A stretch of DNA of 64,000 nt from Escherichia coli (GTDB taxonomy: Bacteria > Pseudomonadota > Gammaproteobacteria > Enterobacterales > Enterobacteriaceae): NCBI RefSeq assembly GCF_001677475.2, contig NZ_CP015229.1; one strand, given 5' to 3'. Each line of letters opens with the position of its first letter. The stretch's first letter is position 1. Positions 57,001 through 60,000 of this stretch are shown here, one piece after another. Position numbers: made by a program.

Positions 57001-60000
57001 CATGGCGCAGCTGGAAGGTTACGTGAAGAATAAGATCAATCTCCCTGCGCGAGCGGTGGTGATTACCTTTGATGATGGCCTCAAGTCGGTGAGCCGCTAT
57101 GCGTATCCTGTGTTGAAACAATATGGCATGAAGGCGACGGCGTTTATTGTTACCTCGCGCATCAAACGTCACCCGCAGAAGTGGGACCCAAAATCTCTGC
57201 AATTTATGAGCGTTTCTGAACTTAACGAAATTCGCGATGTATTTGATTTCCAGTCACATACCCATTTTTTGCATCGGGTGGATGGTTATCGCCGACCCAT
57301 ATTACTGAGCCGTAGTGAGCACAATATTCTGTTTGATTTTGCACGTTCACGCCGCGCTCTGGCGCAATTTAATCCGCATGTCTGGTATCTTTCGTATCCG
57401 TTTGGCGGATTTAATGACAAAGCCGTGAAGGCAGCAAAAGAAGCCGGATTTCACCTGGCGGTGACAACCATGAAAGGCAAAGTAAAACCGGGGGATAATC
57501 CGTTGTTACTAAAACGACTTTATATCTTAAGAACGGATTCGCTGGAGAAAATGTCGCGGCTGGTGAGTAACCAGCCGCAGGGGTGATTATCAGGCAACCT
57601 GTACCGGAATCGCTTTCGCGGTACGTTTCATTTCGTTGTCGCCTTCAAAATAGGCGACGTTGGGCCGCCAGGTGCGAGCTTCTTCATCTGGCATGGTAAC
57701 GAAGCTGGCGATGATGACAATATCGCCGACGCTGGCGCAGTGGGCCGCCGCACCGTTAACGGAAATAATTCTCGAACCGCGTTCTGCCGCGATGGCATAG
57801 GTGGAGAAACGCTTGCCGTTGGTCACATTCCAGATATCAATGGCTTCGTTTTCGAGAATACCAGCTGCGTCAAGAAAATCCTGGTCAATGGCGCAAGAAC
57901 CTTCATAGTGCAGGTCCGCATGAGTCACTTTCACGCGGTGGAGTTTGCCCTGCAGCATCGTGCGAATCATAACTTCTACCTTTCTACCCTGTCGTTAACG
58001 AAGCAGGCGATGCCTGCTTTGAGGAAATTCTCACGCAGTATTGCCCGATTTTTGTTTAGTGTCTACTCATCTGACGGCATTTGCATCAGCAGTTTGCGTA
58101 CCGTGCCGAAGCGTGCCATGTAACGCCTGTAACCAATTGAAATTTCTCTGAACGCTGCTCGGTAAACACTAAAGAGGCGGCTGACGACGGCGCGCCTTGA
58201 CTGGATACTGCCTTCACGCAAGACAACACAGAAGGCAGGGAAGATGGATGCACCGAGTACCACACCGCATGATGCGGTATTTAAACAATTTTTAATGCAT
58301 GCGGAAACGGCTCGTGACTTTCTGGATATCCATTTGCCAGCGGAGCTACGCAAACTGTGTGACCTCGACACGCTGCATCTTGAGTCGGGGAGTTTTATTG
58401 AAGAAAGCCTGAAAGGGCACAGCACTGACGTGCTCTATTCCGTGCAAATGCAGGGTAATCCCGGTTATTTGCATGTGGTGATTGAACATCAAAGCAAGCC
58501 GGATAAGAAAATGACCTTTCGCATGATGCGCTATGCCATTGCCGCCATGCACCGGCATCTGGAGGCGGATCACGATAAGCTGCCGCTGGTGGTGCCGATT
58601 CTGTTTTATCAGGGCGAGGCCACACCTTATCCGCTCTCAATGTGCTGGTTTGATATGTTTTACTCGCCGGAGCTGGCGCGACGCGTCTATAACAGTCCTT
58701 TTCCGCTGGTGGATATCACTATCACACCGGATGACGAAATCATGCAGCACCGGCGGATTGCGATTCTCGAACTACTGCAAAAGCATATTCGCCAGCGCGA
58801 CTTAATGTTATTGCTGGAGCAACTGGTCACGCTGATTGACGAAGGGTACACTAGCGGAAGTCAGTTAGTTGCCATGCAAAACTATATGCTGCAACGCGGT
58901 CATACTGAACAAGCGGATTTGTTTTATGGTGTGCTGAGAGACAGGGAAACGGGAGGGAAGTCTATGATGACGCTGGCGCAGTGGTTTGAAGAGAGGGGAA
59001 GACAGGAGGTAAGACTGGCGGTGAGACAGGAGGTAACACAGGAAGTAAGACTGGAAGTAAGTCAAGAATTCGCCCAGCGTCTTCTGAGTAAAGGAATGTC
59101 TCGGGAAGACGTTGCAGAGATGGCAAATTTACCTCTTGCTGAGATTGATAAGCTGAGTAATTAAGTTGTCGGTATTATCAGTTATAGCCAGATAATTGTT
59201 ATTGTTAACTGACCAGATAATTAAGGGAACCTATGGACATAAAGACACGGAGAGAAACCAGGCAGACGTTGGCGCAGTGGTTTGAAGATAAGGGAAGACA
59301 AGAGGTAAGACAGGAATGCGCCCTGCGTCTTCTGAGTAAGGGGATGCTTCGTGAAGACGTTGCAGAGATGGCAAATTTATCTCTTGATAAGCTGATTAAC
59401 TAAGTTACCTGCGATATGAATAATCGCTTACAGACGTCATCGCCATGACGTGGGCAAATGAATAACTGGCGCCATCAGCCGTAGCGCCAGTTAAATATTA
59501 CGCCAGCTCGACCATTTTGTTGTCGATCAGGCGAGCGTCGCCAAGCCAGGCGGCTACCAGAATCACGGCGCGTTTGCTGTTTTCAGTGACTTCCAGCAAC
59601 GTGTCAGCATCACGAATCTGAATATCATCGGCGCGGAAACCTTTTTCATTCAGTTCTTGCCCTGCAATAGCAATAATCTCATCAAGATCCCGCTCTCCAG
59701 CCTGCAATTTGTCTGCAATCGAACATAAAACCTTGTACATACCGGGCGCAATTTTGCGTTGTTCTGCCGTCAGATAACCGTTACGAGAACTGAGCGCCAG
59801 GCCGTCTTTGGCGCGCATAATTGGCACACCGACAATCTCAATATCAAAGCCCATATCGGCAACCATTTTGCGGATCAGCGCCAGTTGCTGAAAATCTTTT
59901 TCACCGAAGCAGGCGATGTCCGGCTGGACAAGGTTGAACAACTTGCTAACGATGGTCGAAACGCCGCGAAAATGTCCCGGACGGCTGGCACCTTCCAGCA

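Follow-up and report, generated by a model that had tools for sequence, protein, structure and literature searches.

rpnC_Ss, an intact stand-alone copy of the RpnC C-terminal domain downstream of rpnC in Escherichia coli

The window analysed here, a stretch of 64,000 nucleotides of Escherichia coli DNA (contig NZ_CP015229.1), carries an rpnC gene syntenic with the annotated E. coli rpnC between panD and panC, and directly downstream of it a small open reading frame (ORF) that repeats its C-terminal coding sequence. The locus comprises the following features:

58244..59164, + strand: rpnC (RpnC_L), a 306-aa PD-(D/E)XK recombination-promoting nuclease, the toxin partner
58964..59164, + strand: predicted intragenic rpnC_S, 66 aa (MMTLAQWFEE...), from an in-frame ATGATG, by homology to K-12
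59165..59232, + strand: spacer of 68 nt between rpnC and rpnC_Ss
59233..59403, + strand: rpnC_Ss, an intact 56-aa ORF (MDIKTRRETRQTLAQWFEDKGRQEVRQECALRLLSKGMLREDVAEMANLSLDKLIN), free-standing copy of the RpnC C-terminal three-helix domain
59265..59406, + strand: duplicated segment (copy 2), homologous by DNA alignment to copy 1 at 58969-59167
59463..59493, no strand assigned: G+C-rich hairpin between the convergent rpnC_Ss and panC, scored as a terminator for panC (- strand)
59498..60349, - strand: panC, the convergent downstream neighbour that fixes the locus

Residues 7-207 of RpnC match Pfam Transposase_31 (PF04754) at E 3.5e-87, and the protein scores 273 bits against the Rpn family profile TIGR01784. 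Inspection of sequence and frame places the ribosome-binding site of the predicted rpnC_S, GGGAGGG, at 58951-58957; the internal start and the small protein of K-12 rpnC have been demonstrated experimentally (Zhong et al., PMC10400941). The order of rpnC, spacer, small gene and panC recurs in 20+ other loci and, as a separate ORF with its own start on the same strand directly downstream of the parent rpn gene, the small gene belongs to the RpnSs subtype. An identity to E. coli of only about 92% over panD-panB had suggested that the window stems from another Escherichia species; segment-wise comparison spoke against this and reveals an E. coli locus of mosaic make-up whose panCB haplotype is divergent.

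The small gene had been taken, from the sequence alone, for a relic with a frameshift, or a phase-variable module, that slippage in a T-run could bring back into frame. The frame check shows instead 56 uninterrupted codons from 59233 to 59403, with a TAA aligned to the rpnC stop. The ATG occupies 59233-59235, the base at 59232 being the T of TATG; the sequence-only reading set the start at 59232, and translation from there, one base early, gives YGHKDTERNQADVGAVV, 17 codons, and then a stop, which accounts for the supposed interruption after 17 codons. The extra T blamed for it (TGGTTTT) occurs in neither copy, since rpnC (58982) and rpnC_Ss (59278) both read TGGTTTG. The only homopolymer of four or more bases inside the ORF is GGGG at 59340; there is no T-run, and slippage is neither needed, the frame being open already, nor possible. 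Strain-to-strain repeat variation comes in 12-nt in-frame units, which is not phase variation, and relative to intact homologues the gene shows no frameshift, premature stop or start loss. Four independent assemblies (L006-L009) agree at every base of the ORF and of the intergenic stretches on either side, and the exact 56-aa protein is deposited at NCBI (ANO87289.1) on 62 contigs, so the sequence is not a sequencing artefact. With an open frame, identical TGGTTTG motifs and four identical assemblies, the relic or slippage explanation is refuted and its probability is practically nil. Because the ORF is intact, which the sequence-only reading had itself regarded as the mark of a gene, rpnC_Ss is a gene and not a relic, and we are almost certain that 59233-59403 is an intact rpnC_Ss.

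The central observation behind that reading, a second copy of the rpnC C-terminal coding sequence, was borne out by alignment with the rpnC tail (BLASTP 40/74 identities between RpnC and the rpnC_Ss product, E 2e-18; DNA 77% identical), so the similarity is real, although the copy begins 68 nt after the rpnC stop codon and not about 140 nt. Strong DNA homology extends from 58969/59265 past both stop codons by a few bases, and weaker similarity reaches about 25 nt upstream of the duplicated segment (TRRET vs RDRET); the first 11 codons, the ATG and the ribosome-binding site of rpnC_Ss have no clear counterpart in rpnC. Both gaps in rpnC_Ss relative to rpnC are multiples of three. One removes 48 nt from the repeat block, i.e., 16 aa or four 4-aa repeats, and the other 9 nt (AEI); the QEV repeat block said to be missing is thus shortened in frame, but two RQE-type units remain. 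Within one genome the two tails did not evolve in concert, as the own-genome distance (0.129) is not below the cross-genome distance (0.118).

The rpnC_Ss product is homologous to the C-terminal domain of an Rpn nuclease, as are RpnS and RpnSs proteins. Its C-terminal 35 residues match the end of TIGR01784 at E 4e-5 (4.4e-5), a match that covers only profile positions 236-270 of 273 and scores 23.4 bits vs a cut-off of 52.1. Neither TIGR01784 nor Pfam Transposase_31 identifies a PD-(D/E)XK nuclease domain in the 56-aa protein, and because it lacks this domain the deposited names, which include 'transposase' and 'Rpn family', are misleading. The Pfam search gave no DUF4351 (PF14261) match at E<=1, the best matches being sub-threshold HTH families; some close relatives of the product have weak precomputed PF27070 matches. 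The Rfam search returned chance-level matches only (RsmY, 18 bits vs a gathering score of 57). A PDB sequence search did not find RpnA-S and had a single match, the designed 'CAP repeat' protein 8vd6 (E 2.8e-7); this is a consensus-like HTH repeat and is uninformative on function.

The extra tail copy is present in at least 1548 of 5426 complete E. coli genomes and absent from K-12, and it occurs at the same position and in the same architecture in E. coli, E. marmotae and other Escherichia. In the comparison with other strains, which the sequence-only reading had proposed as a check, the ORF was open from the conserved ATG in 12/12 genomes sampled by DNA similarity alone; all length differences among those 12 were in-frame (65-77 aa), and stand-alone proteins of the family span 51-86 aa. 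The start codon, the ribosome-binding site (AAGGGA at 59223-59228, 4 nt before the rpnC_Ss ATG) and the start context are nearly invariant across Escherichia species, as are the last ~30 nt of the spacer across E. coli, E. marmotae and other Escherichia. The spacer measures exactly 68 nt in all loci except one lineage (L032; 43 nt), which has a 25-nt deletion between the direct repeats; in the window this 10-nt repeat, CCAGATAATT, lies at 59188-59197 and 59213-59222. The pN/pS ratio is 0.22 in the first 18 codons, with 2/1/5 variable sites by codon position, and 0.51 in the C-terminal part, with 10/3/15; a C-terminal ratio of 0.4-0.5 indicates only moderate constraint, and part of the coding signature could have been inherited via exchange with the selected rpnC tail.

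The promoter scan of the + strand upstream of rpnC_Ss found no sigma-70-like site, and a manual candidate, TTGTCG-N19-GATAAT, was set aside for its non-canonical spacing. No terminator-like site was found between rpnC and rpnC_Ss. The hairpin at 59463-59493 has no T-run after it on the + strand, where it is possibly a weak stop for the transcript.

The AF2 model of the product has helices at residues 6-35, 40-46 and 51-55 with a moderate mean pLDDT of 70. By TM-score the top PDB structure is E. coli RpnA-S, 7th0 (TMq 0.65, TMt 0.77, rmsd 2.1 A), with a non-significant Foldseek E of 1.9. In the family alignment the block indels come in 4-aa units, the repeat variation characteristic of RpnS and RpnSs proteins. 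Helix 1 ranges from 27 to 43 aa among the small genes, and the window allele stands at the minimum; it is also the shortest allele found (56 aa vs 57-86 aa in the others). It alone in the family comparison lacks three residues, (A/T)E(I/L/V), and compared with a control relative helix 3 shrinks from 10 to 5 residues and local pLDDT falls from 81 to 63. Because the loss of the triplet shortens helix 3 and lowers local model confidence, the window copy of rpnC_Ss could be impaired.

Rpn genes were said in the sequence-only reading to encode small C-terminal proteins that counteract the full-length nuclease, and this agrees with Zhong et al. 2023 (PMC10400941), where RpnS proteins bind RpnL and act as its antitoxins, toxin-antitoxin specificity is set by the count of 4-aa repeats, and a single added repeat already abolished inhibition in the published assay. 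Inhibition of RpnL presupposes equal repeat numbers, and in the window helix 1 of the small protein falls 16 aa (four repeats) short of that in the resident RpnC_L and RpnC_S. Across 23 distinct pairs of small gene and neighbouring RpnC, helix 1 was of equal length in one, vs 1.8 expected by random pairing. The lengths are uncoupled, and we claim only this, since with one match vs 1.8 expected (P=0.42) an active avoidance of matching lengths is unsupported. The repeat types also differ in most genomes, being of the FQKGY type in the small gene vs the IEKG/RQEV type in RpnC. Judged from these sequence comparisons, the uncoupling across 23 distinct pairs implies that a plain back-up antitoxin is probably not what rpnC_Ss encodes; we favour a paralogue that pairs with a specificity of its own over a redundant antitoxin of its neighbour, because helix 1 is four repeats short and a mismatch of one repeat abolishes inhibition. 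We consider it rather unlikely that the product is an effective antitoxin of the resident RpnC_L.

We consider the best overall explanation to be that rpnC_Ss is an intact gene that arose by tandem duplication and is more likely a non-cognate paralogue (probability roughly 0.8). The duplication would have taken in the last ~65 codons of rpnC and a few bases of its 3' flank. The duplicate would then have lost the internal rpnC_S start GGGAGGG-ATGATG and gained a new AAGGGA ribosome-binding site with an ATG 11 codons further upstream. Because no terminator separates the two genes, transcription may occur by read-through from rpnC or from a promoter inside rpnC. Translation would yield a three-helix protein with a long helix 1 followed by two short helices, and we consider it quite probable that this protein is translated and stable. 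Like RpnS antitoxins, it would use helix 1 to oligomerise with Rpn C-terminal domains, either as a self-dimer or with an RpnC of different tail length; its DNA also acts as a homologous partner in the tail-swapping and fusion events seen at the locus.

Two other accounts of an intact gene were weighed against the non-cognate paralogue. If RpnC_Ss neutralised the neighbouring RpnC_L as RpnC_S does, it would be a redundant cognate back-up that adds dosage; it is homologous to RpnC_S, its gene follows rpnC directly on the same strand with no intervening terminator, and RpnS proteins are the antitoxins of RpnL (PMC10400941). A cognate antitoxin should, however, track its toxin, whereas lengths match in only 1/23 pairs, no more than chance, repeat types differ in most genomes, and helix 1 in the window is four repeats short where a single added repeat abolished inhibition in the published assay; we therefore hold the back-up role to be improbable. 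Alternatively, the gene may be a non-functional leftover from a tandem duplication, or from the replacement of an allele, at a locus prone to recombination, with an ORF that is still open only because it is recent or is now and then exchanged with the selected rpnC tail, and with a window allele now decaying. PGAP does label the same gene an incomplete pseudogene fragment in several genomes, K-12 and most E. coli genomes have lost it, no promoter appeared in the scan, helix lengths are uncoupled from the neighbouring toxin, and the family's shortest allele is that of the window, which alone lacks 3 aa in helix 3, where model confidence is lower.

Against such a leftover, the ORF is open in all 12 unbiased samples, in E. 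marmotae and in other Escherichia despite many indels, all of them in-frame. The ATG, the ribosome-binding site and the first 11 codons are nearly invariant yet could not be repaired from rpnC, because they have no counterpart there, and the two tails of a genome showed no sign of homogenisation. The pN/pS ratio is below 1 with an excess of variation at third codon positions, and the analogous RpnE_Ss is made in cells (PMC10400941). Taken with these observations, the leftover account is less probable still than the back-up role. The idea of a stand-alone tail copy as a decayed or phase-variable module thus holds for the stand-alone Rpn C-terminal module and fails for the decay, the ORF being intact.

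We also hypothesize, as a long shot, that the stand-alone copy is kept as an alternative tail and that the locus works as two cassettes between which an anti-phage toxin-antitoxin switches its specificity. One homologous exchange between the tails would move both the nuclease and its intragenic antitoxin to a new, still self-matched specificity in a single step, because helix-1 length is uncoupled from, and nearly always unlike, that of the neighbouring RpnC; before the exchange, the small protein, if expressed, would have no partner other than itself or foreign variants of RpnC. The fusion form seems to be represented by K-12-like genomes and by chimeric proteins, P0077 and P0083 among them.

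The gene type is not new: Zhong et al. described it in 2023 under the name rpnC_Ss and show it in their Fig. 2I (PNAS 120:e2307382120; PMC10400941), and the finding is largely ordinary; in a literature search no paper besides Zhong et al. 2023 mentioned rpnC_Ss. The window's gene shares with the published one its place between rpnC and panC, strand and architecture, as well as the conserved N-terminus M(E/D)IKTRRETRQTLAQWFE, the homology to the RpnC tail and the 4-aa repeat variation; it differs in having only two repeat units, in lacking three residues before DKLIN, in ending without the SN/LN/LI extension, and in lying in a mosaic locus with a divergent panCB haplotype. Like ypaA (rpnE_Ss) of K-12, it is a separately encoded second RpnS module directly downstream of its parent rpn; ypaA lies at another locus and arose independently from rpnE according to the published phylogeny, and its product RpnE_Ss (YpaA), the only Ss protein tagged, was detected by tagging and is synthesised (PMC10400941). 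The intragenic RpnC_S has the same domain, predicted three-helix fold and conserved LAQWFE...REDVAE...DKLIN core; it is, however, a demonstrated antitoxin whose repeat number is by construction identical to that of its RpnC_L, whereas rpnC_Ss starts from a separate ribosome-binding site and ATG, is extended by 11 residues at the N-terminus, and has a helix 1 whose length is uncoupled from RpnC_L. Stand-alone DUF4351 (PF14261) and HTH_Rpn_C (PF27070) proteins are likewise small and free-standing and match Rpn C-terminal domains (PMC10400941), but the rpnC_Ss product has neither a DUF4351 match at E<=1 nor a precomputed PF27070 match.

Annotation pipelines are inconsistent on this gene, which they call 'transposase', 'hypothetical protein', 'RpnC/YadD family protein' or pseudogene, and our analysis corrects the record: it is a real, intact small gene, neither a decayed nor a phase-variable fragment. 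Rpn toxin-antitoxin systems defend against phage, and which antitoxin fits which toxin depends on the count of 4-aa repeats (PMC10400941). The small new observation is that helix length is uncoupled from the neighbour in 23 distinct pairs, and it raises a question beyond the 2023 paper, namely the binding partner of RpnC_Ss. A free-standing copy is released from the co-evolution that a gene within a gene makes obligatory.

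Downstream of rpnC, on the same strand, lies rpnC_Ss, a free-standing second copy of the RpnC C-terminal coding region, in a locus with the following layout:

57590-57970, minus strand: panD, one flank of the rpnC locus
58244-59164, plus strand: rpnC, 306 aa, with a PD-(D/E)XK Transposase_31 domain (E 3.5e-87) and a match to the Rpn family over its full length
59233-59403, plus strand: the small gene rpnC_Ss, from ATG at 59233 to TAA at 59401-59403, 56 aa, MDIKTRRETRQTLAQWFEDKGRQEVRQECALRLLSKGMLREDVAEMANLSLDKLIN
59498-60349, minus strand: panC, the other flank

The rpn genes are toxin-antitoxin systems of genes within genes, in which the full-length nuclease RpnL is toxic, and RpnS, a small C-terminal-domain protein made from an internal start, binds and inhibits it (Zhong et al. 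2023, PNAS 120:e2307382120; PMC10400941). The stand-alone Ss copies arose independently, each from its own upstream gene, and can disappear again, either deleted or fused to the N-terminal part of rpn (PMC10400941), and our literature search found no further paper that mentions rpnC_Ss. The small gene belongs to a kind already described, and its exact protein is already deposited (ANO87289.1, 'transposase [Escherichia coli]', 62 contigs).

The small gene is an intact, conserved open reading frame homologous to the RpnS module. Its product matches residues 233-306 of RpnC with 40 identities in 74 positions (E 2e-18), and the DNA homology of the copies is strong from 58969 and 59265, respectively, to a few bases past both stop codons, with gaps of 48 nt and 9 nt, each a multiple of three. 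The sequence-only reading had recognized the duplicated tail, and this part stands, but it described a frameshifted copy with its ATG at 59232 and an extra T (TGGTTTT). That string occurs in neither copy, both of which carry TGGTTTG (at 58982 and 59278), and position 59232 holds the T of TATG. The supposed interruption after 17 codons evidently came from reading the frame from 59232, where translation gives YGHKDTERNQADVGAVV, exactly 17 codons, and then a stop. The longest homopolymer in the reading frame is GGGG, so the proposed T-run slippage has no substrate; a stand-alone RpnS-type module was rightly suspected, but the module is not decayed or phase-variable. Assembly error as the source of the sequence is ruled out, since the small gene and both flanking intergenic stretches are identical in four independent assemblies and the exact protein occurs in those 62 contigs. 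The tail duplication also explains why two antisense ORFs with TTG starts, 59231-59374 (minus strand, 47 aa) and 58962-59126 (minus strand, 54 aa), resemble each other, both beginning MPSLQRL; no sign of gene status was seen for either.

Of 5426 complete E. coli genomes, 1548 cover at least 80% of the 333-nt rpnC-panC interval; K-12 has an interval of only 73 nt and a single tail. All 12 E. coli genomes picked by DNA similarity only, and hence without bias towards intact frames, had an open reading frame of 65-77 aa from the conserved ATG. A protein search returned 71 relatives, 51-86 aa long, from E. coli, E. marmotae and other Escherichia species. The stand-alone forms among them share the start M(E/D)IKTRRETRQTLAQWFE without exception; some relatives carry weak precomputed matches to PF27070 'HTH_Rpn_C'. 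RefSeq labels vary between 'RpnC/YadD family protein', 'hypothetical protein' and the pseudogene 'transposase, missing N-terminus', yet the frame is open in all RefSeq genomes compared. The RefSeq/PGAP labels set L003, L004 and L042 against L001, L002 and L039-L046: some genomes bear a pseudogene label ('transposase' or 'hypothetical protein', missing N-terminus) although the gene is intact, and in others it is labelled as intact, either 'hypothetical protein' or 'RpnC/YadD family protein'. In three read-assembly contigs (L011, L024, L028) rpnC is either broken into two ORFs or cut short beside an intact small gene, which could be real toxin inactivation or assembly error.

The spacer between the rpnC stop and the small-gene ATG, 68 nt in the window, has exactly this length in every lineage except one, and its last ~30 nt, AAGGGA included, are nearly invariant. 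A 10-nt direct repeat, CCAGATAATT, lies within it at 59188-59197 and 59213-59222, copies 25 nt apart; in the exceptional lineage (L032/L033) the spacer falls short by exactly 25 nt, consistent with a deletion between the repeats. Among 14 distinct gene sequences pN/pS was 0.22 in the first 18 codons and 0.51 in the C-terminal part, and the variable sites (2/1/5 and 10/3/15 by codon position) fall mostly in third positions. Since rpnC holds nothing that corresponds to the ATG, the ribosome-binding site or the first 11 codons, their conservation cannot stem from exchange with its tail, and the conserved start region is good but indirect evidence that the small gene is translated. No terminator was found between rpnC and the small gene in the window; the latter would be co-transcribed with rpnC_S, the intragenic small-protein gene, and translated from AAGGGA-N4-ATG. 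On the 3' side, an inverted repeat (ACGTCAT-CGCC-ATGACGT, 59434-59451) is an insertion/deletion polymorphism, missing in K-12, L001 and L004, where the sequence is CAGATGACGTGG.

By its patchwork of identities, the stretch from panD to panB (57590-61152) is a recombination mosaic. In the panD gene and the N-terminal part of rpnC the locus matches an ordinary E. coli (L002) at 97-99% identity, whereas the spacer and panC (98-100%) and panB (95%) follow a different lineage, L014; against K-12, panB is only ~86% and panC ~93.5% identical. The breakpoint sits in the rpnC tail/small-gene region. The rpnC tail of L014 is almost that of the window, but its small gene, of 75 aa, is very different. Between flanks that are identical or nearly so, the small gene diverges more than any other segment (68%). 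L014 and L015/L017 share an identical 75-aa small gene with rpnC alleles one 4-aa repeat apart (306 vs. 310 aa), thus rpnC alters its repeat number at a faster pace than the small gene changes, and independently of it.

The 4-aa repeat variation of RpnS lies in the long first helix, the dimer interface, and one extra repeat in RpnC_S abolishes its counteraction of the full-length nuclease RpnC_L, while matched additions restore it (PMC10400941). The product of the small gene would likewise form oligomers via helix 1. Were its task to neutralize the adjacent RpnC_L, its number of repeats would be expected to follow that of RpnC_L, as that of RpnC_S does by construction. Among 23 distinct pairs, the helix-1 lengths of the small gene and the neighbouring RpnC were equal in one pair, against 1.8 matches expected if pairs formed at random (P = 0.42 for one match or none), and the differences spanned -12 to +24 aa. 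Tails from the same genome were no more alike (distance 0.129) than tails across genomes (0.118). Taken with the one-repeat specificity rule, these uncoupled lengths make it improbable that the small protein acts as a redundant antitoxin against the resident RpnC_L. A survivorship effect could also contribute to the unmatched tails, since copies that resemble each other would recombine and be merged into a fusion. The small protein may pair with itself or with other RpnC variants, or its gene may chiefly supply partner DNA with which tails are exchanged; chimeras exist in both directions, as small proteins with rpnC-type tails (P0017, P0029, P0031) and as proteins that join an rpnC_S-type start to an Ss-type end (P0077, P0083).

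AF2, run with the family alignment, predicted a long helix (6-35) and short helices (40-46 and 51-55) at a mean pLDDT of 70. The top PDB TM-scores were those to RpnA-S of E. coli (7th0; TMq 0.65, TMt 0.77, rmsd 2.1 Å, 43 columns), which is not statistically significant; the other structure matches were helix-turn-helix domains, none significant for so small a fold, and a Pfam search gave no DUF4351 match in the small protein. The window allele is the shortest of the family: helix 1 (LAQWFE to REDVAE) measures 27 aa where the resident RpnC has 43 aa, four 4-aa repeats more, and the three residues (A/T)E(I/L/V) before DKLIN are missing only here. Helix 3 has 5 residues at pLDDT 63, compared with 10 residues at a local pLDDT of 81 in the control model of P0026, a relative whose helix 1 is equally long, so this allele may be weakened. 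The one modestly new point is the lack of coupling between helix length and the toxin next door, and it sharpens the question of what RpnC_Ss does.
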